A stretch of DNA of 64,000 bases from the NCBI GenBank assembly GCA_049671145.1, contig JBATUM010000185.1, positions 1,828 through 65,827 on the forward strand. The letters are read 5' to 3'. Shown here piece by piece: positions 9,101-61,603 of the stretch. This stretch comes from Promethearchaeia archaeon. Its GTDB lineage: Archaea; Asgardarchaeota; Lokiarchaeia; Sigyniarchaeales; SOKP01. The notes below the pieces were generated by a model. The model was not told the DNA's origin, ran no database searches, and saw only the letters and a program-made list of their open reading frames with translations. The first letter of the stretch is position 1. Every line of letters begins with the position of its first letter. Made by a program: the position numbers and the translations under genes.

Positions 9101-12100
9101 GACGAGCTATATTTCAGTGATGAAAAATATATCACGTTTACTGCATTTGATGAGATGTTTGATAATTTTAACTGGAGTAGCATTGATCAGGCTGTGTATG
9201 AGCAGCTAGGAGTGAAAAATGTAACCTTTTATTATACGAGCCAACTTGCTTGGTATCCGCTTCAAATTTATGGAACCCTCGATTATGAAACATTTGTGTA
9301 TAAAATCACTGGCTATGATGATCCACTTAATACTAACGTACAAAATATAAAAAGTATCCAGAAGTTAAGGATTGCAAATATTACCGTAGATAAATTTACT
9401 GTATTGCTGGATGGGACTTCTATATCTATACGAATCGATGAGCAATACCGTTACCTACTTTCTTCAGAATACAGTGATCAGATTGAAGCGCAATTTTATG
9501 AATTTGTGGATGATAATGTTCTACTAGCATTTGATCAAGTTTCTGAAAAGTGGAAATTAAAATCTACCGGTGAAAATTATTTCAATATTTCACAATATTT
9601 AACCTTAAATGAAGGAGATGAGTTCCTGTTCTGGTTTGAAATTGAAGATGGATTAGGAAATCTTATCCATTCGCACAAATATCATGGGGTATATGATAAT
9701 TCCATGACTAAGGATGGCTCAGATTCCTTTTTTAAATGGAGCTTAGGAACTAACTCCACTGGGGCAGGGATCGTTCTGTTTGGTTCTGATACTTATGCCG
9801 ATAGCACCATTCAGCTTAATTCTTCATCTATAGAAAATACTATCTTCGATGAATCCGATGTACAGCGTATCTATATTTATGGGTCGTCTGACCAGTCTAC
9901 ATGGGAGTTTATAGGTAGAGCCTATTATTCAGGAGAAGAAAGTATATGGAACTATTATTGGGACGGAGATATTATGGAACAATTACCTCCCGATCATTAT
10001 AACTTAAGGGTGTATTTATTTGATAGAGCAGGTAATTATCTTTCAGAGACTCATGTTATCCGCACGTTTGATTATACCCAGATTGCCTTAATTACTGATC
10101 TTATCTTTGGAGAGATTTTTGACTATAATTCTACCGCAAATTCCAATGAACAAGAGCTAAAAGGAATTATAGAAAATTATTTATCAGGTTCTTCAACGAG
10201 TTTATGGGATGTAATTGCTGAGTATTATAATCCTAATACAAAAGAGTGGATTCCTCTCGCCACTGATCCTGCTACCATTGTGGCAAATGGAAATTCAGCA
10301 AACTATACTATTACATGGGATATTAATCAAGATACCGCATTTATGGACACCATGTATAATTTAACCTATAATTATCTACCTTTACAAATCGCTTCTCCTA
10401 CCCAACAGAGTTTATGGGGTTCATGGGGCACATTTGGTATTGCCAGTGAATGGCAACCGATTATTATTTCGGAAGTCTCTTCAAATCTCGATATTTCGGT
10501 ATATAAATTCAATAGTACGACTGGGTGGGAACTTGATACCTCGTTAAGCAGTGAGGCTACCATTTCTTCAATTGAAGGGCAAGTGTTCAAATTATTCGAT
10601 ATTAATAAGGATGGAGTTTATGAAATTATTCGAGTATCCAGCTCGAAAATTGATGTTATATATTTAGACGGAAGTTCAGATTGGACAATTAAAGAGGATG
10701 TGACTGGTCTTTCTGGATATGAATATTCTGCCTTTGATATAGAGTATGATGGTACTTCCTCAAATTCCGTTATGGTAATTACCCAGAAAGATAGTTCACA
10801 ATTACTCTCATTGTGGTATTATCGGTTTGATTCTGAGTTTAATCTTACAAAAGTGGAAAGTGTTGAATGTCCTATAAATTTTGAACCATATGCCATTAAG
10901 ATAGAAAATTATTTCTCTGGCTCTGATAGAAAGGCCATTTTAGTAGGGGGATTAATTTCAAATTCTTATATTTCTCAGGTATTTGAATATGATTTCAACT
11001 TAAACCTCAAATATGTTATTGCTGACGAAATTATAGGTAAAGTTTCAGTTATCGAATATGATCAGATTAATGGGATCGATTCTATCATTCTAGGAGTTGA
11101 GCGCCTTGCTATCGGCAAGATGGATGCGGTTATTACTTTAAAACGGACTACTGGTACAGAAGAATGGGTTGAGTTTGAGCTTTCGGGTTTTGACGATCTT
11201 AAATTTCAGATTATTGATTTAATTACCATCCAAGAAAATAATATGAAACACCTTATTATCTCCTCTAAAACAGGGTTATTTCAGACAAGAATTATAACTT
11301 TACAGGATAAGACTTCAATTACTAGTCCGATATGTTTTATATCCGAGACTTATGCTAAAGGGGAGCTATCTCCTACGAACTATCCGGTTGTCACTCCTAA
11401 TAACCTACCCATTTATAATATTCAAAAAGCATCTTATAAAACAAGTGGAAGTAATCAATGGCAGACTTTAAATCCGGAAAAGTACCGCTATTCTCGAAAT
11501 GAGATTAGACTAGACCTACAATCCATCTGGTCTTCGTTAACGTACATCAAAATCGCTTATTCATTTGAATCGTTTGTGGCAGAGGCTCGAAGTTCTGTAG
11601 ATCCATCTTTTCAATCCTATTCAGGTACGTCTGATACCCAGAGTGTTTCTGCTTCGGGAATGTTTTTCAATGATTTCTCCTTACCGTTTGCCTGGCTCAA
11701 CCCTACCTCGAATTATTATGCTCCAAATGCCCATTGGAATACTTTACCCAACAGTCTGACCTATCAATATACCCCTGTCATTTCGGGGTTAGGCAATAAG
11801 GTTGTATATCCCACTATTAAATCTGATTGGGCAGAGAATTGGGGTTCCGAATATCTTAATATGCCAGAATTAGAAAATTCACTTATTTATTACGGAGATG
11901 GATATGACACGGGACAATTAACGCAGTATTTGAACTCCAAAGATCCTGATTTAGCAGATACCATGTATCTCAATAATTATGTAGATGGGATGTATATTTC
12001 CAACCCTTATATCTCAGAAAATTACAATTTTTCTGATATGTACTATTCCGATATACACAATATCAATAACCAGAACGGACTGTATAATTACTACGACGGT

Positions 12101-45728: not shown

Positions 45729-46568
45729 ATGGGTTTTTATAAAATAGACGGAAAAAAATATGAGGTAAAAAAAGATTATATCAATCTATATGAATGTGGA
45801 TTAAATTTAATTCGTGATATTATTGGTTTAGACCAACTGGTAAATTTAAGAGCTTTATTGTTAGAACGTAACAATATTAGTGATATCGAAGGATTGGAAA
45901 ACCTTATAAATTTAAAAATTTTAAACTTAGAGGATAATCATATTAATGAGATTAAGGGATTAGAGAAACTTACAAATTTAGAGACATTGAAATTGAATAT
46001 TAATTCAATAAGTAAAATAGAACAAATTGAAAATTTAACGAATTTAATAGAATTAAACTTAAGTTCAAACAATATTAAAATAATAGAAGGACTTACGAAA
46101 TTGATAAAATTAGAAAAATTATCTTTGGCAAATAATCAAATTTCCAAAATTTCTGGTTTAAATTCGTTAAAAAATCTCTCTCTATTAACTTTAGATTCTA
46201 ATAAAATCACAAAAATAGAGAATCTACCCATATCAAAAAAATTAGAATCTTTAAGTTTAGGTGATAATAAAATCACTGAAATTTCTGGCTTAGATAATTA
46301 CAGGAATTTGATACTTTTATATTTAAGAAATAATAAGATTAGTGAAATTACGGGTTTAAAATCTCAGAATAATTTGGAATATCTTGATTTAAGCAATAAT
46401 AATATTAAAGAGTTAAAGGGATTAGAGAGGATGACAAAATTAACTCAATTAGAATTTGGTGGAAATTTAATAGATCCTAATTTGATTGAAAAATTAGGTG
46501 GTTTAGATAGAAGTGGATGTGCATTACAACCTCAAAAGTTTGTTGAATATTGTAGAAAAAATAAATAG
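45729..46568 (+). CDS. Leucine-rich repeat protein (about ten 22-aa LRRs, SDS22/internalin-like)
   Basis: The unit LxxLxxLxLxxNxIxxIxGLxx repeats regularly, for example LENLINLKILNLEDNHINEIKG and LEKLTNLETLKLNINSISKIEQ. No TM segment or signal peptide is visible. Confidence 0.85.
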   Translation: MGFYKIDGKKYEVKKDYINLYECGLNLIRDIIGLDQLVNLRALLLERNNISDIEGLENLINLKILNLEDNHINEIKGLEKLTNLETLKLNINSISKIEQIENLTNLIELNLSSNNIKIIEGLTKLIKLEKLSLANNQISKISGLNSLKNLSLLTLDSNKITKIENLPISKKLESLSLGDNKITEISGLDNYRNLILLYLRNNKISEITGLKSQNNLEYLDLSNNNIKELKGLERMTKLTQLEFGGNLIDPNLIEKLGGLDRSGCALQPQKFVEYCRKNK

Positions 46569-46725: not shown

Positions 46726-47316
46726 ATGACTAAAAATATTGATTTACATACCCAACTTGTATTGAAGTTATTAAATGGGTTAAATTCTAAACCGATAGAT
46801 GGAAAAATAAAATTCCAAAAGATAGCTTTCTTGGTTTTAAGGAATTTTGAAGAGATATTTGAGTTTTTTGATTTCAAAGCTCATAGATTTGGTCCTTATA
46901 GTGAATCTTTGAATTATACTTTAGAAGAAGTTAAGAACAAGGAAGAAGCACAAATAGAGAAAGATACAATAAAAATTACTGAAAATGGGAGAAAAAAATT
47001 AAATGAATTAGAATCCATTACAGAGTTAAGCGAGAAAGAGAAGAAAAATAAGGAATTAATTGAAAAAGCAATTGAAAATATAAAGGAAGACTTTATCAAT
47101 TTCACCAGTGATGAGATGTTAGCTTTTATTTATAAAAGTTATCCTAACTACATAAGTGATTCTATTGTAGCCGATAAAATGGACTATGAGAAAATATTTC
47201 TTGAGTTATATGATAAAGGTGAATTAGGAATATCAAAAATTGCTGAGTTAATGGACTGGGAGTTTCAAGATGCATACGATTTTATAAAAAAGAACACCAA
47301 GTTACAAATCTTATGA
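46726..47316 (+). CDS. Putative antitoxin (C-terminal UPF0175-like HTH; N-terminal Panacea/DUF4065-like region)
   Basis: The C-terminus GELGISKIAELMDWEFQDAYDFIKKN resembles the UPF0175 HTH that partners with PIN toxins. The N-terminus KFQKIAFLVL...FKAHRFGPYSESL resembles the Panacea pattern. The stop overlaps the PIN gene start (ATGA). Confidence 0.45.
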   Translation: MTKNIDLHTQLVLKLLNGLNSKPIDGKIKFQKIAFLVLRNFEEIFEFFDFKAHRFGPYSESLNYTLEEVKNKEEAQIEKDTIKITENGRKKLNELESITELSEKEKKNKELIEKAIENIKEDFINFTSDEMLAFIYKSYPNYISDSIVADKMDYEKIFLELYDKGELGISKIAELMDWEFQDAYDFIKKNTKLQIL

Positions 47317-50892: not shown

Positions 50893-53800
50893 TTGTTTAA
50901 TATGAGTTTAAAATATAGCGATTATCTGAAAAACAAAAAAAACGATAAAAAATATAATGAATCTCGTTTTGAAGATGAGGGTGATAATTCTGATTATTTA
51001 GATATTTGGACGGTAAATCCTTTTTATAAAGATATTAATACTAAAAAGTTAAGAGCCAAAATAGGCTTTTTTGCAATTTTAATCTTAGCAACATCGTTTC
51101 TAATTCTATCTCTCTTTTCTAAAATTAATTACTTAATAGGAGCAATAGCTTTCCTTCTAGTATTGCTATTTTATGAAAATATCTTTAACTTTTTCAACAA
51201 CCTCTTTACAAGCGTTCAGGGATTGAAGTGGATCAATCCATATAAAGATTTGATATTCTGGACAAATGATCCTGAAACCCTTGTAATGGTAAATAAGAAA
51301 AATTCGTTGGTATTTGCAATTCAAATATTTGAAGTTAAAACCTTGCCTGAGAATGTCCATCCTACTTTAAATCATTTTCTTAAAGCACTAAACAATGCAA
51401 ATATTAAATACTCGTATCAGGTCGTACAAACTCCATTGATGTATCAAAAACTCAAAATAAAGAAAATTAGTAATAATGAAACTTCAATTTATTTTAGTGT
51501 ATTTGATCAGAGAAAAGGCATTTTAACTAAAAGCAAAATTGATAATTTAGTTCAAACTGTACGGTTTAACTCAAAAATATTCAAGTCTCATCTTAGTTCG
51601 AATTTTCATCATACACAAATCTCCTTATTAAGCGGGCTTAATTTAATTAACGCGATTAGAGCAATTTTTTGTGGAATTAATCTTGATAAAATAGAGTTTA
51701 GAGACCTTAACAATGAGCATTCTAAAAACAATGTTCGTTACATAGTAAAATTAATAGTTATAGCTCTTTTTATAGGATTAGTATCTTATTTTTCAACGTA
51801 TTTTTCACTTCCTTGGATATTCATACTCTTATTAGATATTATAATCATAATGGCGCTCATTTTCATTTGGTGGGAAGATTTGTTATATTCTATTTCAAGG
51901 GTTTGTTTTCTTAATAATATAAACGTAAAATCTGTTGATCCCTTCATAGATATTAATTTTTATCGAATGAAAGGGTGTAGAGATACGCTTTTTCTTCTCT
52001 TAGATGATCACTTATTAATTGGACTCAAACAATTTAGCTTAAAACATGCGATTCAGAAATGCTTTATATATTCCGAGAAACTTTTCCGAGAGCTGAATAA
52101 TCAGAAAATAACTTTTATTTATACTCTTCAGGCTATACCTTTATTACCTAGCGATTTTAGCAAAAAATGTTCTAAATTTCTAAATGAAAAAGGATATTCA
52201 GATATGAAAAGAATATTTGGGGAAACAGTGCTTGGTGGAACATCTACTCCTCCAGCTAAAAATGCCCCCCTAGTGTTTAAAAATTGGTTAAACATGAGAT
52301 CAGGGATTTGGAACACAATTTTAACAGTGTCAGTATTATCATATCATTTTATTAATCCAAGAGATATTAGCCATTTTGAGGATGTAGAGGAAGACCTAAT
52401 AAGTAAGTCTGAAATTATGCTAAGGGCATTTGAGGACAATTTTCTCAATCTTAAATTAACTCAATTGAGAAATCATAAACTAATTAATGGATATCGATTT
52501 GTGTCTCTTAAAAATAGTTTATTCAAGGCAAAGAACACAGGTTTACCTTGTGTATATTTCCAAGGAAAGACCTTAATATATCTAAATGCTATTTCAAATG
52601 AATTTAAAAAAGGATTAGAAACCAAAATCGCTGCAGAATTTAATACTCCCCTCCATTTGAAAAATGATATTATTATAGGAGAAACCATCAATACTGAGTT
52701 CTTAGAAAAAGAAGGTGAATTAGGCTTTAAACTTGAGCAGGTAAAGCAACTACTAATTACTAATGGGCTTTCTGAGCAAAGAGAACACACAATGATGAAG
52801 ATTGTAACGGAACTTATAAAGATAGGAATACCATGTGTGATATTTGATTATTCAGGAAAGTGGTCGAAACTAATCAGTAATTTTAAAAATACGTACTTAG
52901 AAGAGACCTTTTTATATTTCAAATTAGGACGCTCATTTAGCCTGTATTTAATAGATTCAGAAGAAGATTATGATAAACATAACTTAGAATATTTAAACTT
53001 ATTTTACGATGTATTTGCGTTAGCCTTTAAGGAACAAAGAAAAAGTGTTGATCTTCTCAAAGAATCTGTAACAAAAAATAAGGAAATTGATATAAGCACA
53101 CTTGCTTTAGAGCATGAAATGGAAGAACAACTCTTTAAAAAAAATAATTATAATAGTTTGCTTGAGCTTTTACAGGGATTTATTGATTGGAGAGCTTTAT
53201 TTTCATCTAGATCGTTAAAATTTGAACAAGAAATTAAACCTATTGATTTTCTTAAAATTGATAAAACGATCATCATTGATTTATCTTTATTAGAAGAATT
53301 GAAACAAAAAAATTTCAGTACCTTTGTTCTCTTATCCAAATTCATACATCATCTTAGAAATGTAAATGATTTTCACAGAAAAGTTATTATTATTCCTCAT
53401 ATCGATCTTTTTTTTGATGCATATTACATTGATAATTACAATATGGTTGATTATGGTACAATCGAAAAGTTTTTAGATCCATTTCTTGACAATGGATTTG
53501 GGCTAATTTGTTCAGCAAATCAAATACGATATCTGCATTCTCATGTGTTTACCTACTTTCCAAATATCATTACATTTAAAGCTACGGATCCTCGAGATAT
53601 TGCGGTGTTAAAAAACACAATAAATTTGCAAGAATTACAAGGAACAGGTTATTATAGTTCAAAACGAAATAATACATACCAAATTGATTATCTTATGAAT
53701 TTGCGAAAAAATGAAGTCATTGTAAAAAGATCTGATATTAATCAACCATTTCCGGGAGAAATTAATTACGATCAACTCCAATTAACCCCTCTCCTTTCAC

Positions 53801-54717
53801 AGGATACAATAGCGGTTTATATGGAAAGGCAAGGATATGCTTATAAAGATCATGAGAGACGTATCTTAGAAAGAGCTAAAGAGACACTTTTTGAAAAAGA
53901 TTTTGGAATCTATTCGGAATTTATTGATGATATAATTAAGTTTTTGGCTAATATAAGTGCCGTTGATAAGATTGGGGGGAATTATGAGCATAAACTTAAA
54001 GAAGAACTTCTAAAATATATTCATTCAAACGCAATACATAAAACGAAAGATAAGAAGAAAATTAAGCAATTAAGAGATGCCCTTTTCCGCATTCTTAAGC
54101 AACAAAGTTATTTAGTTGAGAGTCACCCACTTCAAGCGAGTGGAGGGCAAACTACACGCACTTGCTATAAAGTCGGACAAAAATATCATAACGCACTTAA
54201 GGATTATTATAGCTCAAAAAAAAGGTTAGCCCCTAATATTTCTGTTGATGTAATTGAAAAGAATATAAAGAATAATTCTAAGGGGCTTAATATGTTAAAA
54301 GGGGTATCTTCAAATGATACAATCAGAAGTGATAAATTTAAAGATATAGTATTTAGAGAATTGGGAAGTTTTATATGGCAATTATTTAAATTGCATGACG
54401 CAAATGAGAATAAACACTACGAAACATCATTAAAAGTTGGTAAAGATTTGATCTTTAATTATCTTACATCATTATACAAGATATTTCTTAAAATGAACGG
54501 AGGTCAAACTCCTGAAAGCATAAAACTTCCCTCATTTATTACGGCTCTGACTTCTTATAAAGTTATTCCATTTACTATGAATATGATTAAAGATTATTGT
54601 CAAAAATCAAAGCAATTATCCCAAAATGCAGAAAATCCCGAAAAGAATGCTCATGAATTAGAAGATTTAATCATGGAATTCTACAAGACTACTAGAATGC
54701 ATTTTATAACAAATTGA
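50893..54717 (+). CDS. Membrane-anchored HerA/VirB4-like protein with degenerate Walker A and B (pseudo-ATPase)
   Basis: There are two TM hairpins (about 51058-51175 and 51733-51875). The C-terminal half is collinear with the next gene, but its P-loop reads TNGLSEQREHT against MSGLTGVGKTT, and its Walker B reads VIIIPHIDLF against VIMMDEVGSI. Shared blocks are IIIDLSLL/VYIDLSGF and NIITFKATDPRDI/IKILFRTDKEDL. The ATG at 50902 may be the true start. Confidence 0.6.
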   Translation: MFNMSLKYSDYLKNKKNDKKYNESRFEDEGDNSDYLDIWTVNPFYKDINTKKLRAKIGFFAILILATSFLILSLFSKINYLIGAIAFLLVLLFYENIFNFFNNLFTSVQGLKWINPYKDLIFWTNDPETLVMVNKKNSLVFAIQIFEVKTLPENVHPTLNHFLKALNNANIKYSYQVVQTPLMYQKLKIKKISNNETSIYFSVFDQRKGILTKSKIDNLVQTVRFNSKIFKSHLSSNFHHTQISLLSGLNLINAIRAIFCGINLDKIEFRDLNNEHSKNNVRYIVKLIVIALFIGLVSYFSTYFSLPWIFILLLDIIIIMALIFIWWEDLLYSISRVCFLNNINVKSVDPFIDINFYRMKGCRDTLFLLLDDHLLIGLKQFSLKHAIQKCFIYSEKLFRELNNQKITFIYTLQAIPLLPSDFSKKCSKFLNEKGYSDMKRIFGETVLGGTSTPPAKNAPLVFKNWLNMRSGIWNTILTVSVLSYHFINPRDISHFEDVEEDLISKSEIMLRAFEDNFLNLKLTQLRNHKLINGYRFVSLKNSLFKAKNTGLPCVYFQGKTLIYLNAISNEFKKGLETKIAAEFNTPLHLKNDIIIGETINTEFLEKEGELGFKLEQVKQLLITNGLSEQREHTMMKIVTELIKIGIPCVIFDYSGKWSKLISNFKNTYLEETFLYFKLGRSFSLYLIDSEEDYDKHNLEYLNLFYDVFALAFKEQRKSVDLLKESVTKNKEIDISTLALEHEMEEQLFKKNNYNSLLELLQGFIDWRALFSSRSLKFEQEIKPIDFLKIDKTIIIDLSLLEELKQKNFSTFVLLSKFIHHLRNVNDFHRKVIIIPHIDLFFDAYYIDNYNMVDYGTIEKFLDPFLDNGFGLICSANQIRYLHSHVFTYFPNIITFKATDPRDIAVLKNTINLQELQGTGYYSSKRNNTYQIDYLMNLRKNEVIVKRSDINQPFPGEINYDQLQLTPLLSQDTIAVYMERQGYAYKDHERRILERAKETLFEKDFGIYSEFIDDIIKFLANISAVDKIGGNYEHKLKEELLKYIHSNAIHKTKDKKKIKQLRDALFRILKQQSYLVESHPLQASGGQTTRTCYKVGQKYHNALKDYYSSKKRLAPNISVDVIEKNIKNNSKGLNMLKGVSSNDTIRSDKFKDIVFRELGSFIWQLFKLHDANENKHYETSLKVGKDLIFNYLTSLYKIFLKMNGGQTPESIKLPSFITALTSYKVIPFTMNMIKDYCQKSKQLSQNAENPEKNAHELEDLIMEFYKTTRMHFITN

Positions 54718-54825
54718 AATCAAGTTTTTTATTTAAATATCCCTAAAATATTAACTTTTAAAACAAAATTCGAGGTGGTTTAGATCGAACCAGAATTTTG
54801 GCATGGAGTAGTAAAAATTACTCAA

Positions 54826-56772
54826 GTGCCTAATATGAAGAACAGTAGTGAAAATAATAACTCATGGCTCTGTAATCCTTTTGGAGATGCCAGAGTTTAT
54901 ACTACAAGGATTACGCTAGACGAGGAATTTTCGTGGGAATTCTTTTTTAAAGAAGATTCTAAAAAGGAAGCTTATCAAAGTGCTGAGTCGTTTCTCCTTT
55001 ATTTAAAAGAGGTTTATCCAGGGTTAGCAGGACAAGTGAAAGTCAGAGGAATAAATTATATGGACTTACAAACAAAGAAGCAGATCTTTGAACTTATTTT
55101 ACCCAATCCTGTATTTGCGAAAAAAATCAACTTAATCAAAAAAATAATGAATTTATTTCCAGTGAGCAAAGAGTTTAAAAAGAGTTTTTTTATCTCATGG
55201 CAGGAAGATGATTCTGTCATTAAAGAACTGGAAAATTTTGCGAAACTAAAGCAACATATTACTTTAGATGAGAATTATAAAGCAAAAGTATTCTTTCTAA
55301 TTGAGCCAAAATTCAATAATAATTCAGAAATAAGTAACCAGGTAATTGAAGAAATAAAAGAATATATGGCGATGGATATACGCAATGCGGATAATGAAAA
55401 TGCATCTATAAGCGACGCACCTCCGGATACATGGAGATATATCTTAGAGGAGATGGTGTTTTGGAAGAATATTTTAGATTGCGATACAGGCAGGTTTTAT
55501 CGACGCGTGGAAGGAGGAATCCCTCCAGAAATGATACCTGCTTTTATTAGTCCTAAAGTAGTTGATTTTAGTTTTAATCATGATATTCCTTTAGATAAAG
55601 CATTTACTATTAAAAATGAGAAGATTGGGTTTAATTCTGACTTTAGAAACAATAGTTCTCGAATTCTTTTAGGATATTATATCAAACATGGGGTTATTAC
55701 TGAGAATCCTGTTTATCTACACTTAGAAGATTTAGTCCAACATATATTTATGTCAGGATTAACTGGTGTAGGGAAAACTACTATAGAATCCCAATTAAAA
55801 CAACGTATAAAGAAGACAGGTAATCCCTGTGGAGTGTTAACGATCAAATTGTTGAAAGGAAATGAATCTTTTATGTTTAGCTCAGAGATTATGCTCAAAA
55901 AAGGAGATCCCAAATTACGAGTACCTTATATCATGGAAGGAGAAGAAATTGACCAAATTATAGAACAAGTTGCTGGATACTCTGTTGCTTCAGTGGGATT
56001 AAAAAACGTTGTTGTTTCAATTATGGAAATCGTATTAACCCATGAATATGAAAATAAAGGTAAATTTCCAGCAAAAATCAAGCAAGCTTTTGCACGCGTT
56101 CATTTACATCTGGAGGAGAATCCTTACCATAAAAAATTTCAAACTAACATTTTGAAAGCTTTAGAAAATCGGGTAATGAAACTTTTATCAAATCCAATTC
56201 TGGAGAAAATTTTGGAAACGGGACCAATCCCAGAGTGGTTTATTGAATGGCAAAATGGTAAAGATGTGTATATAGATTTATCAGGATTTAAGAAAAGTGC
56301 GCAAAGACTGCTGGTTCACGCGATCTTCCAATTAATTCGTACTTGTTCCCCTGAATTAGATGCAAAAAAACTGATGCATAGTAAAGATCCTTCTCAGAAG
56401 CTTAAAAATGTCATAATGATGGATGAAGTAGGCTCTATTTTAGGAAAACCAAAGTATCAAAGTTATGATGATGACGAAACTATAACGAAGCATTACTTAG
56501 AAATTGTGTTTGAAGAATTTTTATCCGCCTTCAGAAGTAGAGGAATTGGTATAATCCTTGGGGATCATATGCCTTCCAGATTATTTGAAGGAGTTTATAA
56601 ACTTCCTAGCATAAAAATATTGTTTAGAACAGATAAAGAGGATTTACAAAAGTTTGGGTTAGATGTAGAGGATATCATGGTTATTGACACTCTAAAAAAT
56701 CGGTTTGCATTCATTAAAGATGGTGTTAATTCAAGAAGATTTCTATTCTATACGACTGACTACGAATTATAA
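54826..56772 (+). CDS. HerA/FtsK/VirB4-superfamily ATPase (intact Walker A/B)
   Basis: Walker A is GLTGVGKTT and Walker B is NVIMMDEVGS. The family-typical YIDLSGF block and the C-terminal GIGIILGDHMPS...IKILFRTD block are present. The ATG at 54835 is a possible alternative to the GTG start. Confidence 0.7.
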   Translation: MPNMKNSSENNNSWLCNPFGDARVYTTRITLDEEFSWEFFFKEDSKKEAYQSAESFLLYLKEVYPGLAGQVKVRGINYMDLQTKKQIFELILPNPVFAKKINLIKKIMNLFPVSKEFKKSFFISWQEDDSVIKELENFAKLKQHITLDENYKAKVFFLIEPKFNNNSEISNQVIEEIKEYMAMDIRNADNENASISDAPPDTWRYILEEMVFWKNILDCDTGRFYRRVEGGIPPEMIPAFISPKVVDFSFNHDIPLDKAFTIKNEKIGFNSDFRNNSSRILLGYYIKHGVITENPVYLHLEDLVQHIFMSGLTGVGKTTIESQLKQRIKKTGNPCGVLTIKLLKGNESFMFSSEIMLKKGDPKLRVPYIMEGEEIDQIIEQVAGYSVASVGLKNVVVSIMEIVLTHEYENKGKFPAKIKQAFARVHLHLEENPYHKKFQTNILKALENRVMKLLSNPILEKILETGPIPEWFIEWQNGKDVYIDLSGFKKSAQRLLVHAIFQLIRTCSPELDAKKLMHSKDPSQKLKNVIMMDEVGSILGKPKYQSYDDDETITKHYLEIVFEEFLSAFRSRGIGIILGDHMPSRLFEGVYKLPSIKILFRTDKEDLQKFGLDVEDIMVIDTLKNRFAFIKDGVNSRRFLFYTTDYEL

Positions 56773-56803: not shown

Positions 56804-59800
56804 GTGGGGGATGAGTGGGATGAATATGAAAAAGATGAAGACACGAATCCTGAGAAAGAAAAGGATTTAGACGAGTTAGAGGAAGGATATGACCCATTTT
56901 CGTTGAAATCAAAGGTTATGGAAAATGAAGAAGAACAAGAGTATGATCCCTTTTCTTTGCATAGAGATGAGTGTGATACAGAAACAACTGAAGATTACGA
57001 TCCTTTTTCCTTAACTGAGGGCGATTCTGCGAATGAAATGGATGAAGATTATGATCCATTTTCTTTACATAGAGATGAAGTAAGTGAGGAACAAACTGGA
57101 GAAGAAGACATTACTCAAAAAGAAGAACGAGAGGAAATATGTGAAAATATTGATTCCCAATCTACTCTATTAGTGCAAAGAGAGTCTAATAAAGATGGAG
57201 AAACTTGTGATGAACGAGCAGAGGAAAATAGTGAGCAAGAGAAAAATCAAACTGAAGATACTGAAGAAATAATAATGCCTGATCCAGAAAAATATGAACA
57301 AGACCAAGAGACAATTTATGATCCAGCTGAGATTGATTTTATTAGAGATATGGAAGAACTAGGGAGTATTTTAAAAGAATCTGAAGAAAGTAGAGGCATT
57401 TCTGAAGAGGAATTAGAGGAATATGATAATACAGGTTTTAATGCAGAGCAAGCATATCAAGAAATAAAAGAAAAAAATAGAGAAAAAGAATTAGAGCAAA
57501 AGGAATTGCCTTTAGAGGAACATGATCTCCAAAATACGGTTGAGAAGGCGGAGGAGCAACATAATGAAAATTTAAAAGAGAGAGAATGCAAGGAAGAAGA
57601 TGAATTACCAAAGGAAATAACCGATTCGGAGGAATTTCAATACCTTTGGGAAGAATATGATAGACTTGAACAAGAAGGAACGAACCTCGAAGAGATTTCT
57701 GAATTAATGCATGAAGCGGAAGAGACGTATCAAATGTTAAAAAATTATGAGGAAGAATTAGAAGAAATCTATGAACGACAAGAAAAGCAAGGTTTAGAAT
57801 CAATTGACCATAAGAACGAGGAAAAACCAGAAGATTATAGAATAGAAGTTGAGAGTGTATATGAAGCAGAATATTTTATTGATGCTGAAATACAATTACA
57901 AACAGAAGGTAAATCATCAGAAGAAATAACCAATGAAATGCAAAAAGTTGAAGAAAAATATGATTTTGAGGAAAAAGTGGAAAAACTTCATGAAAAACAG
58001 AGAAAGGATAAATATAATTCAGTTGATCATGAGAATGAAGAGGATGAAGATGACCAAAGGGAGGAGATTGACAGAGTAGATGTGATAGAAGGTGTTGTAG
58101 AAGCTGAAGAAGAATTCCATAAGCAAGGAAAATCTCAAAAAGAAATAGATGAGAAGACTGAAAGAATTGCCAATAAATTTTATAAAAATGAAATAGAAGA
58201 ACAGCTACAAAATAGACCAGAACAAGAGGTTAATAAGGAACTTGGAACTGAAGTTACTGAACCTGAATTTGCTTTAGAAGAACGAGATCAGATCAACCAC
58301 ACCTCTTTTGATAATAATGATCAAAAAATTGAAATTTATCCAGAGATGGAAAATAGAGAAATATTAGAAGAAATCGATATAGAAGTAGATGACTCCACAA
58401 ATGATAGAGGATCGTATCAAGAAAGTATGGAAAAAGCTATTGAAAAAGAAAACAAACCAGAAACCGAAGAATCACAGGAAAAAGAATATGAACTCCTCCA
58501 ACAATTATATCACCAAGATACAGGGAGAAGACCTCAATATAGAGGAAGAGAAACAAAAGAGTATAGTCAATGGTTAGAACATCAAAAGTTAAAAACTAAG
58601 AAAGCCAAAGAAAAAGAAGTGAAAGAACAAGAAGAGGAGAGATGGAAAGAGATACTTAAAGATTGGATAGAAGAATCTAAAGATGAAATGCCCAGCTCTG
58701 AACTTAAATTAGTTTTAAAAGAGATAATTCAAAAGTTCGAAATATTAGAAGAGTTATATAGAGAAGGTGTAAATTTAACTGAAATCGAAAGAGATCATTG
58801 GCTCTCTAAATTAATAAAGCTTCAAAACAAATATCCAATTCATTTACATTTATATCAAAATATCTACGGATTTAAAGTATATGTTCAAGAGAGTCATCCT
58901 TGGGATATTAATCGAATAAAAAACAAATTTCTTAGACATTTGGTTAAAAAATATAAAATTTTAAAACAAAACTTAAAAAATATTAATTTCGGCAATATAA
59001 AAAGTTCAGAATTAAGAAGCATTATTAAAAAATATCATAAATTTACGTTAAATAAATATTTAAAAGTTAAATATCCAAATAGAGGCTTTCAAATAACCAA
59101 ACAATTTTTCAAATGGTTAAAGACTGACGGAAACGCTGCTAAGATGGATAAAATAACTAATATTTGTAAAGAAATTAATACTAATCAAGAACTATATAAC
59201 TTTTTTATTTATCTGGTTATAAATTCATTATTATCTCTTAAAAAAATCTCTGAAAAATTTAAATTTCTCGGTTTTAATATCCACTCATCCGCTTTGGGAA
59301 AATATGCTAAAAAAATTTTAGGAGCAGAATATAAAATTCGATTTCCAAGTGGCAAGAAGAGAATTCAATCATTTAATAACAAAAATTTATGTTTTCACAA
59401 TCTCTTAAATAAAGTTTTATTACAGAAATTTTATGAATTTCGGGAAGAATTTCCTAAAAGTTATCCAAATACAGGTAGGATTATAGGTGATAAGTTTATT
59501 TTATGGATTAAGAAAAATTTGAAAAATTTTGATGAAAAGAGATATTTACTTAAATTGATTGAAAGAGTTAATGGAAATAGAGAGATTACTCAATATATAA
59601 TAAGTTTAATTTACCATTCCGAATTAACTCAATTGGATATTGTAAATGAGCTTTGGAAGAAAAACTTAAAAATTTCCCGAGAAGCAATAAGAAATATTGC
59701 GGAACAGAATTTGTCTTATGATAAATACAAAGAAAGATTTTCAAGATATAAAAAATCTTATAATTATGATGAGCAATTATCATCAAATAGCTCTCTTTAT

Positions 59801-61603
59801 CAAAGTTTATTAAATCCAGTATTACATACCTCATTTAAAAATTATTACCAAACTATTGGGAAGTACGCTAATATAGGAAGAAAAATTTCTAATTCCTTTA
59901 AATCATGGATTAAAAGATCAAAATATAAACTTAATAAGCGTCAAAGAATCCTTAATTTAATTGAAAACATCAATAAAAATAATGAAGTTGAAAGATTTAT
60001 CATCAATATTATTCGAAATTCAATAGATAATTCAAAAGAAAGAACTTCTTTAGGCGAAATTTCGAGAATGTTTAAAAACTTTGGCTTAGATGTCTCTCGA
60101 ATGACTGTAACTAGAATCGCATTGGAAAAAGTATTTAATAATGATCTAGAGATATTCCAAAAATATTTTAAACCTGGACAAGATGAAGAATTTAAAGATA
60201 TTGATCTTCAAAACTTATTCTTTGACGATATAACTAATTTTGGAGTAGTAAGTAAATTTAAAAGCTTTAGAAGAATAACGAGAGAGGAAGGAAGAGAGTT
60301 ATATCCGAATATAGGTACAAAGATTTCACCATATTTTATTGAATGGATAAAAAAAAATATTAAAAATGATGATGAAGAGAAGCAAAAATTAATTCAATTA
60401 TGCGAAAAAATAGACGAAGAGTCGCAAATTTTACAACTAATCCTTCACAGAACATTATCTTCAGATTTAAATATATCTGAAATCGCGCTTGAAATGGAAA
60501 ATCTAGGACTTAATGGTCAACGGGGTACCATTTCAAAAAACGTATTAAAGTATATATATAATAATGATAAAGAAAATCTAAACTTAAGATTTCCATCAGA
60601 TTTAAGTTCAGAATTGGGAACTTGGACTCATATATGCATTAGAGATTTATTATCTAAGCATTTTATATCCATTAATTATAAATATTATTCAGAAGTACAA
60701 ATATTTCCTCCTAGTAATAAAAAGGCAGATGGGATTTTACTAAATATTAGACAAAATAGATATTTGCATGAAAAGTTAAATCTTTCTAAAGATGGAAATA
60801 GATTTAAAAACAAAATGGGAATTAAAAATAATATCATTCAAAAAATTAAAGCTATTCAATTTGATTTTACAAGTGATATTTCTGATGAAAATATTATAGA
60901 CAAATGCATAAAATATCAAAATCCAAATATTTTATTGATTATCGTATGTACAAACTGGAAAAATAAAAAGGCTAATAGAAGTTTGCCTCCTCTCTCGAAT
61001 AAAGTTAAGAATAAAGATAATCTTTGTATTATTAGTGCTAAATTATTCACTGAATTTATAGGATTGAATCAAACTTTAAAACAAGAATTCCTCAATATTA
61101 TTTCTAAAAGCAATAAATCAAATTTAACTTTCTTAAAACAATATCATAAGAAAAATTATCCAAATCTTACTAATTCTGGAACTATAGAATTGAAAAATGA
61201 TATTGGCTCCAAATTATTTAATAGAGTTTTTAAAGATCTTGAAATAAGCGAGGTAAATGAACTCATTGATACCTCAAAACTTGCATCTAAATTTGTTTCA
61301 TTTTGTTTGGAAAATATAAATTCCCAATCGAATCAGCATGAATTAAAATCTCATATAATATCAAAAGGTGGATATAAAGGAGGATACTTCAAATTTACAA
61401 CTAAAAATTTATATGAATTTAAGAAATTTGTAAAAACAAAAAATCTAAATTTAAACTATTTGTCTAAGATTTTGGCAAATATACATGGAATTCGTAATAT
61501 TTTTTATAAAAAGATATTAAGATATAATTCAACACTTAAGAGAAGGACAGAACAAAGAGTAATTTTGATTAAGAAATCTTTTTTAGAAAGTCAAATACAC
61601 TGA
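56804..61603 (+). CDS. Large (1,599 aa) acidic/coiled-coil protein with four HTH-like modules and a possible nuclease-like end
   Basis: The GTG start is preceded by TAGGAGGGAGGG. The N-terminus has four (E/D)YDPFSL motifs, followed by a long E/K-rich region with about 70-aa repeats, four about 125-aa repeats each ending ...RFPS/KPG, and a C-terminal alpha/beta region. Confidence 0.75.
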   Translation: MGDEWDEYEKDEDTNPEKEKDLDELEEGYDPFSLKSKVMENEEEQEYDPFSLHRDECDTETTEDYDPFSLTEGDSANEMDEDYDPFSLHRDEVSEEQTGEEDITQKEEREEICENIDSQSTLLVQRESNKDGETCDERAEENSEQEKNQTEDTEEIIMPDPEKYEQDQETIYDPAEIDFIRDMEELGSILKESEESRGISEEELEEYDNTGFNAEQAYQEIKEKNREKELEQKELPLEEHDLQNTVEKAEEQHNENLKERECKEEDELPKEITDSEEFQYLWEEYDRLEQEGTNLEEISELMHEAEETYQMLKNYEEELEEIYERQEKQGLESIDHKNEEKPEDYRIEVESVYEAEYFIDAEIQLQTEGKSSEEITNEMQKVEEKYDFEEKVEKLHEKQRKDKYNSVDHENEEDEDDQREEIDRVDVIEGVVEAEEEFHKQGKSQKEIDEKTERIANKFYKNEIEEQLQNRPEQEVNKELGTEVTEPEFALEERDQINHTSFDNNDQKIEIYPEMENREILEEIDIEVDDSTNDRGSYQESMEKAIEKENKPETEESQEKEYELLQQLYHQDTGRRPQYRGRETKEYSQWLEHQKLKTKKAKEKEVKEQEEERWKEILKDWIEESKDEMPSSELKLVLKEIIQKFEILEELYREGVNLTEIERDHWLSKLIKLQNKYPIHLHLYQNIYGFKVYVQESHPWDINRIKNKFLRHLVKKYKILKQNLKNINFGNIKSSELRSIIKKYHKFTLNKYLKVKYPNRGFQITKQFFKWLKTDGNAAKMDKITNICKEINTNQELYNFFIYLVINSLLSLKKISEKFKFLGFNIHSSALGKYAKKILGAEYKIRFPSGKKRIQSFNNKNLCFHNLLNKVLLQKFYEFREEFPKSYPNTGRIIGDKFILWIKKNLKNFDEKRYLLKLIERVNGNREITQYIISLIYHSELTQLDIVNELWKKNLKISREAIRNIAEQNLSYDKYKERFSRYKKSYNYDEQLSSNSSLYQSLLNPVLHTSFKNYYQTIGKYANIGRKISNSFKSWIKRSKYKLNKRQRILNLIENINKNNEVERFIINIIRNSIDNSKERTSLGEISRMFKNFGLDVSRMTVTRIALEKVFNNDLEIFQKYFKPGQDEEFKDIDLQNLFFDDITNFGVVSKFKSFRRITREEGRELYPNIGTKISPYFIEWIKKNIKNDDEEKQKLIQLCEKIDEESQILQLILHRTLSSDLNISEIALEMENLGLNGQRGTISKNVLKYIYNNDKENLNLRFPSDLSSELGTWTHICIRDLLSKHFISINYKYYSEVQIFPPSNKKADGILLNIRQNRYLHEKLNLSKDGNRFKNKMGIKNNIIQKIKAIQFDFTSDISDENIIDKCIKYQNPNILLIIVCTNWKNKKANRSLPPLSNKVKNKDNLCIISAKLFTEFIGLNQTLKQEFLNIISKSNKSNLTFLKQYHKKNYPNLTNSGTIELKNDIGSKLFNRVFKDLEISEVNELIDTSKLASKFVSFCLENINSQSNQHELKSHIISKGGYKGGYFKFTTKNLYEFKKFVKTKNLNLNYLSKILANIHGIRNIFYKKILRYNSTLKRRTEQRVILIKKSFLESQIH
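56887..57067 (+). repeat. Four YDPFSL short linear motifs in an acidic context
   Basis: GYDPFSL, EYDPFSL, DYDPFSL and DYDPFSL are spaced 12-13 aa apart. The second and fourth are followed by HRDE. Confidence 0.9.
59069..60600 (+). repeat. Four tandem modules of about 125 aa with a helix-turn-helix-like core
   Basis: Each module begins (K/S/L)Y(P/A)N-x-G-x-x-I-x-x-x-F-x-x-W(I/L)K and contains a segment such as LSLKKISEKFKFLGFNIHSSALGKYAKKIL, LTQLDIVNELWKKNLKISREAIRNIAEQNL, SLGEISRMFKNFGLDVSRMTVTRIALEKVF or NISEIALEMENLGLNGQRGTISKNVLKYIY. Confidence 0.6.

Follow-up and report, generated by a model that had tools for sequence, protein, structure and literature searches.

The stretch of DNA analysed here (the window; 64,000 nucleotides, positions 1,828 to 65,827 of the forward strand of contig JBATUM010000185.1, assembly GCA_049671145.1) belongs to a Promethearchaeia archaeon, and it carries two adjacent genes, designated P1 and P2, that had been predicted from the sequence to encode a membrane-anchored, catalytically dead HerA/VirB4-like protein next to an intact ATPase. 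Both open reading frames (ORFs) were found where this original prediction had placed them, on the + strand and with all of the motif strings quoted for them, and they are followed by a third, larger gene, ORF3 (Table 1). The likely start of P1 is the ATG at 50902, as in the NCBI record (1271 amino acids, aa). Exact matches of P1 and P2 in public proteins come from a Promethearchaeia (Asgard) metagenome-assembled genome, and both are annotated as hypothetical. P1, P2, and ORF3 form a conserved cluster in one clade of P1 proteins, and the pairing of P1 with P2 may indicate a hitherto undescribed machine that handles DNA in association with the membrane. The basis of every functional statement in this paper is sequence, predicted folds, and gene order.

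Table 1. Features of P1, P2, and ORF3 in the window, and examples from related loci (h, hydrophobic residue; x, any residue; NTD, N-terminal domain; STIV, Sulfolobus turreted icosahedral virus)
Feature	Position	Strand	Residues	Basis or remark
P1 (gene 1)	50893..54717	+	1274 codons from TTG	ORF list, translation
Transmembrane hairpin 1	51064..51174	+	58-94	Hydropathy
NTD subdomain A	51211..51693	+	~107-267	Starts with INPYKD motif; AlphaFold2, fold match, hhalign
Transmembrane hairpin 2, between NTD subdomains	51733..51873	+	281-327	Hydropathy, AlphaFold2
NTD subdomain B	51919..52533	+	~343-547	Starts with VDPFID motif; AlphaFold2, fold match, hhalign
Predicted RecA-like core, HerA/VirB4-type, without catalytic motifs	52660..53772	+	~590-960	AlphaFold2 and Foldseek
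Degenerate Walker A site LLITNGLSEQREHT	52750..52791	+	620-633	Family consensus NGxxxxRE
Degenerate Walker B site KVIIIPHIDLFFD	53380..53418	+	830-842	Consensus hhhhP[HND]xD instead of hhhhDE
Arginine-finger-equivalent segment LDNGFGLICSANQIRYL, arginine absent	53485..53535	+	865-881	hhalign against P2 FRSRGIGIILGD
Conserved C-terminal region of P1	53845..54717	+	985-1274	Conserved in P1 family
P2 (gene 2)	54826..56772	+	648 codons from GTG	ORF list; NCBI record 645 aa
P2 Walker A GLTGVGKT	55756..55779	+	311-318	G311, G314, G316, K317 invariant in 24 sequences
P2 Walker B NVIMMDEVGSI	56407..56439	+	528-538	D533, E534 invariant in 24 sequences
P2 arginine-finger segment FRSRGIGIILGD	56530..56565	+	569-580	R570, S571, G573 invariant; aligns with STIV B204
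ORF3	56804..61603	+	1599 aa	Translation; partner of P2
ORF3 conserved module	58469..59038	+	~556-745 (~190 aa)	BLASTP, tblastn
Type I operon, examples	L022 4675-13004; L024 4804-13098
CDC48_N-protein loci	L001 9481-9990; L004 384-896; L016; L071

P1 was unmatched in Pfam, PHROGs, PADLOC, NCBIfam, and PDB sequence searches, and the nature of its C-terminal half was read from its predicted fold. An AlphaFold2 model of residues 545-1010, with 19 homologues as input (predicted local distance difference test, pLDDT, 79.6; predicted template modelling score, pTM, 0.82), had 146 PDB matches at E<=1e-3, the best of which was Sulfolobus HerA (4d2i; Foldseek E 7.8e-13), followed by dozens of HerA chains; VirB4 (4ag6; E 1.5e-7), the DndH C-terminal domain, and TdpAB were also matched. 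The alignments under this model and the one described below are shallow (18-19 sequences), and the matches point to an ATPase-like nature of P1 that is not due to chance. At the P-loop P1 reads NGLSEQRE and at the Walker B site VIIIPHID, while LDNGFG lies opposite FRSRG of P2. In the model, LLITN forms the strand before the P-loop and GLS-EQREHT the short loop entering the helix, i.e., the degenerate string occupies the Walker A strand-loop-helix (model strand 75-79, helix 83-99); likewise, VIII forms the Walker B strand, with the Walker B-equivalent string at its end (model 287-290), and is followed by PHID. The arginine-finger segment reads L(D/E/Q)xGFG in 20 aligned members of the P1 family.

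The proposed loss of Walker A and Walker B from P1 at the positions aligned with those of P2 was borne out by these data, which moreover revealed that the arginine finger is gone too, while P2 is intact. Since an intact P-loop elsewhere in P1 would have contradicted this view, a substitute was sought in P1 and its homologues and none was found: a motif scan detected GxxxxGK[ST] in 24 of 24 P2 homologues and nowhere in any of 20 P1 homologues, and isolated GK[ST] tripeptides in P1 are unconserved and lie outside a Walker A context. The substituting residues are invariant or nearly so in the P1 family (N624, R630, E631, P835, D838, D842, and Q877), as is D652 in the surroundings of the dead site, which suggests that the site is kept for some purpose other than canonical catalysis. 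On the evidence of its motifs, the HerA/VirB4-type domain of P1 is predicted to be incapable of canonical ATP hydrolysis. In the region that follows this domain, residues 985-1130 had no Pfam or PDB sequence match; an identity as a MAGE winged-helix was considered and rejected as insufficiently founded, because it was matched by one homologue only.

The N-terminal half of P1 contains two predicted membrane hairpins, both of which have counterparts in 20 of 20 aligned P1-family members according to hydropathy. An AlphaFold2 model of residues 96-625 (pLDDT 73.9, pTM 0.72) had 14 PDB matches, all of them TrwK/VirB4 of the R388 type IV secretion system (T4SS), with E-values from 1.4e-10 to 3.5e-8 over approximately 500 columns, and the next PDB match was at E 0.026. 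Hairpin 1 occupies the position of VirB3 in VirB3-VirB4 fusions, and the suggested likeness of the N-terminal hairpin to such a fusion was upheld, in that the 96-625 region matches only TrwK/VirB4 among solved structures. P1 is accordingly a VirB3-VirB4-like inner-membrane protein, which by its fold would descend from VirB4 and work like it. Provided that each hairpin crosses the membrane twice, the soluble parts of P1 would all lie on one side, presumably in the cytoplasm. Moreover, one alpha/beta unit is seen twice in the model, with two long helices in between (model residues 180-244, corresponding to hairpin 2), and subdomains A and B are homologous (hhalign 97%, E 9.2e-11).

The 22 close homologues of P1 are found in Asgard archaea only. 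A profile of the P1 core, searched by HMMER against 1.84 billion representative proteins, defined a superfamily of 171 cluster representatives at E<=1e-3, of which the named members belong to Promethearchaeota/Lokiarchaeota, Sigynarchaeota, and one bin labelled Bathyarchaeota. Walker A was present in 0 of the 122 representatives aligned over the P-loop, and among 112 aligned representatives hhhDE was kept at Walker B in 2 and hhD[DQ] in 5; P2-like proteins were never among the matches of the P1 profile. The distant members (520-870 aa) consist of one hairpin, one NTD subdomain, a degenerate core, and a short C-terminal domain, and their single NTD subdomain is homologous to both subdomains of P1 (hhalign E 8e-13 and, for subdomain B, 6e-11). 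Since these short relatives carry one unit of hairpin plus subdomain, P1 looks like a tandem duplication of that unit; thus, the two hairpins attributed to P1 are present, but the description of them as gained did not hold. As judged from its sequences, the P1 family is old, diversified, Asgard-wide, and degenerate at the P-loop throughout. Some of the short members (P0150-P0182) keep hhhDE/DD together with an arginine segment of the form R-x-x-G-h-G-h-h-L-S-x-Q-x-P-S, with Walker A already lost, and the short forms look like earlier stages of decay. An origin of P1 or P2 from a virus or mobile element was rejected, since neither has relatives among 2.9 million viral contigs.

P2, for which 25 homologues were collected, passes the Pfam cut-off for DUF87 (PF01935, HerA central domain; 24.0 bits versus a cut-off of 23.2, residues 390-503), and a PF01935 match is precomputed for 8 of the 25 members of its family. 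Besides, P2 matches the PADLOC HerA model at 6.4e-11, and in the PDB its family profile hits Sulfolobus HerA as well as B204, the packaging ATPase of STIV. Hydropathy analysis of P2 and 23 relatives detected no hydrophobic hairpin or convincing membrane segment, with the exception of one marginal segment, and the first ~290 residues of P2 match nothing known. Its sequence therefore identifies P2 as a soluble HerA-type ATPase with intact motifs and a member of the HerA clade.

The annotated start of P2 deserves attention in its own right. Ahead of this start and in the same frame, IEPEFWHGVVKITQVPN (window 54769-54835) encodes the N-terminal peptide that is conserved in the P2 family (M-E-P-E-F-W-H..I-T-Q-V-P-N); the peptide begins with ATC at 54784, directly behind a TAG in that frame, and has GAGGTGG before it. 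The true start of P2 may be this non-canonical ATC at 54784, or the original ATG may have been lost. P0024, a P2 homologue of 88% identity, is annotated with the same short start. In several P2 homologues (P0037, P0041, P0042, and P0044) the protein ends in a zinc-ribbon (PF13248/PF12773; a CxxC...CxxC tail), which is lacking from P2 of the window.

Direct comparison of P1 with P2 gave no significant BLASTP match (best E 0.12), and hhalign of the two family profiles was at most suggestive (E 0.009 and 0.002, probability 4-14%), placing VIII of P1 opposite VIMM of P2. Homology in the ATPase half was reached only via the shorter superfamily members, which retain more HerA-like sequence, e.g., RRFRRAGIGLHLSVQTPSRF. 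The short-form profile aligns with the P2 family over 466 columns (hhalign 93.7%, E 1.9e-7), and the ATPase halves alone do so at 95.7% and E 8.9e-9. This alignment runs collinearly from Walker A via the IDLS motif and Walker B to the arginine-finger segment, pairing GGT--PEER with GLTGVGKT, IEVD/IDLS with IDLS, and VLIDQAD with VIMMDEV, and the arginine segments with each other. The collinearity of the ATPase halves that had been claimed for the pair was thereby recovered by way of the short forms, the direct BLASTP and hhalign comparisons being weak, and the two halves are, by these profile alignments, homologous and collinear, but distantly. P1 can consequently be called a paralog of P2 in a deep superfamily sense only. 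It is not a decayed copy of its neighbour, since it belongs to an old Asgard-wide family in which none of 122 representatives has Walker A and whose profile never matched P2. The N-terminal domain of P2 did not significantly match that of P1 or of the short forms (E 0.07-0.37), despite an NPFxD-like start common to them, and on account of these comparisons a VirB4 half-NTD in P2, in the manner of CedB and CedD, was dropped as unproven.

The homology and collinearity of the ATPase halves, together with the conserved surface around the dead site of P1, would suit a mixed ring, in which P1 and P2 alternate as dead and live subunits of one membrane-anchored assembly, like heteromeric motors with degenerate sites, and the original prediction had proposed such a heteromer. 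The same halves, however, are too diverged for a confident BLASTP or direct hhalign link, and the VirB4-type NTD of P1 is not detectable in P2. Moreover, the solved HerA and VirB4 assemblies are homo-oligomers.

Gene neighbourhoods also bear on this issue. They were taken from a genomic scan of one genome per species, which yielded 65 P1 loci whose ORFs were clustered, and were ordered along a tree of 59 P1 proteins of full length, built by simple neighbour-joining and carrying no support values; the neighbourhood counts depend on contig ends. All 65 P1 loci are from Asgard archaea (Promethearchaeota, Hermod-, Hod-, Thor-, and Odinarchaeota), and approximately 50 of them, referred to as type I, share a conserved operon. 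The first gene of this operon encodes a protein of ~600-700 aa with two hydrophobic segments and an N-terminal (HhH)2 (helix-hairpin-helix) DNA-binding domain that matches the HhH domains of RadA, Topo V, and NusA; it is followed by genes for a ~245-aa protein with 3-4 transmembrane (TM) segments, a ~286-aa protein anchored at its C-terminus, P1, and, in last place, a soluble protein of small size. The gene for a DEAD/Hel308-like helicase is transcribed divergently, GNAT-like and DUF998 genes lie downstream, and a P-loop protein is absent within the operon itself in these ~50 loci.

The remaining arrangement, type II, corresponds to a single clade of the tree that includes P1 of the window, and in these loci P1 lacks the type I partners and is followed by P2 and then by a protein of 1000-1750 aa. 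P2 lies downstream of P1 in 12 of the ~15 type II loci with enough sequence (Promethearchaeota and Thorarchaeota). In 7 of the 12 linked loci nothing intervenes between P1 and P2, the gaps being -16 to 526 nucleotides, and the stop and start codons of the two genes abut or overlap in L012, L017, and L018; 1-3 genes, mostly on the opposite strand and including one for an HNH-domain protein in L005, separate them in L001, L005, L007, and L014, and a same-strand gene of 230 aa does so in L064. Types I and II coexist in several genome bins (L008/L022, L018/L024, L011/L025, and L014/L038), which indicates that type II is an extra paralogue and not a replacement. The gene-pair survey that had been recommended for archaeal genomes hence had a divided outcome: the P1-P2 pair is conserved in the type II clade, but about 50 of the 65 loci have P1 in an operon without an ATPase partner. 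Seen from P2, the association is looser, with P1 directly upstream in 6 of 48 P2-centred metagenome loci, and absent from at least 10 P2 loci for which 4.6-10 kb upstream are available. The core pair thus consists of P2 and the ORF3 module, and type II P1 joins them facultatively as a third component. In type II loci, a TPR-like gene and a gene for a protein of ~170 aa with a CDC48_N domain (PF02359, 3e-18) are often found just upstream of P1, which is not the case in the window.

The adjacency and occasional overlap of the P1 and P2 genes would again be in line with a mixed ring. However, a P2-like gene is missing from about 50 type I P1 loci, and P1 from at least 10 P2 loci; since each family is found alone, each must be able to assemble alone, which argues against an obligatory mixed hexamer. 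Combined with the homo-oligomeric nature of HerA and VirB4, this makes separate docking rings likelier, and a mixed ring of P1 and P2 is considered very unlikely.

The same neighbourhoods raise the question whether P1 and P2 are functionally connected at all, since a mobile P2-ORF3 module could have been inserted by chance beside a P1 paralogue and then have been co-inherited. The occurrence of P2-ORF3 without P1 and the genes that intervene in L001, L005, L007, L014, and L064 (with the strands and HNH gene mentioned above) would fit such a history. Nevertheless, the linkage persists across P1 sequences of ~44-70% identity, from Promethearchaeota to Thorarchaeota, it is restricted to one P1 clade, and the overlapping or abutting coding regions are typical of co-translated partners. 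Chance neighbourhood is thus regarded as improbable.

The large partner of P2 is linked to it more strictly than P1 is. A protein of 1000-1750 aa is encoded after P2 in 10 of the 10 genomic loci having downstream sequence, and the ORF3 module was detected downstream of P2 in these 10 loci as well as in 12 of the 48 metagenome loci (tblastn). BLASTP of ORF3 versus 9 other partners revealed that the module at residues 556-745 is the sole part common to all P2 partners, which makes it a candidate P2-binding region. The rest of the partner varies by locus, with TFIIB and helix-turn-helix domains in one, LAGLIDADG_3 in L006, and a weak PDDEXK_1 match (E 0.002) in L005; the protein to which P2 is so tightly linked is very large and varies fast. 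ORF3 itself has an extremely acidic N-terminus with four YDPFSL repeats (window 56888-57089) and, further along (window 58469-61603), a module bearing the signature YPN.G..I...F..W[IL]K, repeated at least 4 times, whose copies by eye look like helix-turn-helix units, and an end domain in which the residues of H..YYSE..DG..[DE]xTS..K..KY are invariant in four homologues. The resemblance of this C-terminal motif to PD-(D/E)XK was noticed by eye and, being unsupported by the PDB profile search or Pfam, was not retained. The related locus L006 (1-12142), in which a P2 homologue stands without P1, also encodes, at ~7-10 kb from that homologue, a 757-aa protein weakly matching a Piwi domain and a protein with a NurA domain; the NurA of this locus, ~10 kb away, was the only one seen.

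Taken together, these features suggest a scaffold-plus-motor arrangement, which is the preferred interpretation, albeit a tentative one, in which P1 would provide a membrane platform, P2 a docked motor, and ORF3 the binding of substrate, with DNA as the substrate at the cell envelope. P1 would self-assemble at the cytoplasmic face of the membrane in a VirB4-like manner and act as a scaffold or gate rather than as a motor. A ring of P2 would dock onto P1 as a separate, stacked assembly and supply the ATP-driven work, by analogy to VirD4 or VirB11 with VirB4, or to CedB with CedD, and ORF3 would bind the substrate and possibly cleave it. That the substrate is DNA is suggested by the HhH protein of the type I operon, by the assignment of P2 to HerA, and by the domains that occur in P2 partners. 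A complex that acts on DNA at the envelope would most likely serve to capture or process foreign DNA on its way in: P2-ORF3 has a patchy distribution, is found without P1, and includes a fast-changing partner, which follows the logic of 'HerA plus effector' systems in the interception of incoming DNA.

Several observations weigh against this interpretation. ORF3 had no significant domain match in the library searches, and its putative DNA-binding and nuclease roles are a reading of motifs. In L004 and L016, type II P1 occurs without P2. The conserved residues at the dead site of P1 may allow non-canonical nucleotide binding or another activity. Furthermore, Pfam and hydropathy searches recognised no VirB2-, VirB6-, or VirB8-like gene next to P1 in the window, P1 and ORF3 match no PADLOC model, and the surroundings are no obvious defence island. 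The same searches recognised neither a VirD4/coupling-protein gene nor a separate VirB3 gene near P1.

Comparison with known systems places P1 closest to VirB4. It shares with VirB4/TrwK (TrbE) the NTD fold, over the ~500 columns mentioned, and the RecA-like C-terminal fold, and its first hairpin stands at the place of VirB3 in VirB3-VirB4 fusions. Unlike VirB4, P1 lacks Walker A, Walker B, and the arginine finger, and it has a second hairpin between duplicated NTD subdomains and an extra C-terminal region of ~290 aa; also in contrast to VirB4 of T4SS, its neighbours show no recognised VirB2, VirB6, VirB8, or VirD4, and its family is Asgard-restricted. The likeness to HerA concerns both proteins, through the DUF87 and PADLOC matches of P2 and the HerA chains that the fold of the P1 core matches best. 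P2 also resembles HerA in having a dedicated partner gene, as HerA has with NurA, Sir2, or DUF4297; unlike HerA-NurA, Sir2-HerA, and DUF4297-HerA, its partner measures 1000-1750 aa and has no recognised effector domain. Among the scanned window ORFs, none matched NurA, Mre11, or Rad50, and in this respect P2 differs from a HerA-NurA module. HerA systems are known without a membrane pseudo-ATPase as third component, and P1 would be such a component. In the bacterial type VII secretion proteins EssC/EccC, which are membrane FtsK-like, degenerate ATPase domains regulate or scaffold beside an active one; there, dead and live domains reside in one polypeptide with a role in protein secretion, and the likeness to P1 and P2 is by description only.

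The closest archaeal precedent is the CedB/CedD pair, and its division of labour differs from that of P1 and P2. CedB and CedD of Sulfolobales are paired membrane proteins of the FtsK-HerA superfamily with VirB4-like NTDs, each having one TM segment and half a VirB4 NTD, and both are called ATPases (PMC11868833). By contrast, P1 alone holds the whole duplicated NTD, all of the TM segments, and the dead site, whereas P2 is predicted to be soluble and live, with no TM segment and no detectable VirB4 NTD. The statement that such a pair had not been described for archaeal HerA-like proteins therefore has to be qualified by this partial precedent (PMC11868833). In Thermoproteales, Ted loci combine genes for VirB4-like (TedB) and HerA-like proteins (PMC9905601). 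'HerA/FtsK capture' defence systems have been discussed as well (PMC10853773). The P1 family was not described in the searchable full-text literature on Asgard archaea with VirB4, type IV secretion, or conjugation.

The main alternative purpose is DNA import or export between cells, of the Ced/Ted type, in which P1 would be the VirB4-equivalent part of a channel, and P2 and ORF3 would prepare or pump chromosomal DNA. It would explain the VirB4-specific NTD fold of P1, the multi-TM and tail-anchored proteins and the (HhH)2 DNA-binding protein that accompany the type I relatives, the pairing of VirB4-like and HerA-like genes that Ted loci show likewise, and the distribution of the P1 family over five Asgard phyla, as for a housekeeping system. 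On the other hand, no gene resembling the VirB2/CedA1 pilins or VirB6/CedA was recognised either in the window or at type II loci, the VirB4-like component is predicted to be catalytically dead, unlike CedB, TedB, and VirB4, and a patchy P2-ORF3 pair with a highly variable partner suits conflict systems better. DNA exchange of this type is therefore judged unlikely, and interception of incoming DNA by a P1 scaffold with a P2 motor is preferred.

In a wider evolutionary frame, the main form of P1 sits with a helix-hairpin-helix DNA-binding membrane protein, and it is conceivable, although doubtful, that Asgard archaea ancestrally possessed a so far unrecognised, domesticated T4SS/Ced-like apparatus around a dead VirB3-VirB4 fusion, of which one offshoot was re-coupled in trans to a HerA motor and a giant DNA-binding partner. 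If so, the prokaryotes most closely related to eukaryotes would possess, in this offshoot, a new kind of envelope machine that imports, exports, or intercepts DNA. The searchable literature contained no account of DNA exchange or interception in Asgard archaea, and the phylum-spanning VirB4-derived pseudo-ATPases with their HerA-wired sub-clade are testable candidates for an Asgard DNA machine. P1 and P2 would moreover provide a natural case of a translocation ATPase turned scaffold that draws its energy from a separate protein, and bear on the simplification and repurposing of T4SS-like systems in archaea such as Ced and Ted. If the purpose is defence, they would add a membrane-anchored layer to HerA-plus-effector immune systems. 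These findings are of interest to the study of archaeal DNA transfer, T4SS evolution, and Asgard biology.

The remainder of the window contains further genes on the same strand upstream of P1 (41867-47804). The first of these encodes a protein of 1263 aa, one stretch of which resembles signal peptidase I/S24 (TIGR02228 at 5.7e-10, which is below the cut-off, and a phrog_4 repressor match); it is accompanied by a gene for a leucine-rich-repeat protein (45729-46568; LRR_4 at 2.7e-38) and one for a protein weakly resembling the SocA/Panacea antitoxin (46726-47316). More than half of the window (101-36973, +) is taken up by one ORF of 12,290 codons, with ~6-7 hydrophobic segments at residues ~637-875 and more near 11214-11373 by hydropathy. 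P1 relatives are also flanked by very large genes, in L001 (>3234 aa) and L004 (>1947 aa).

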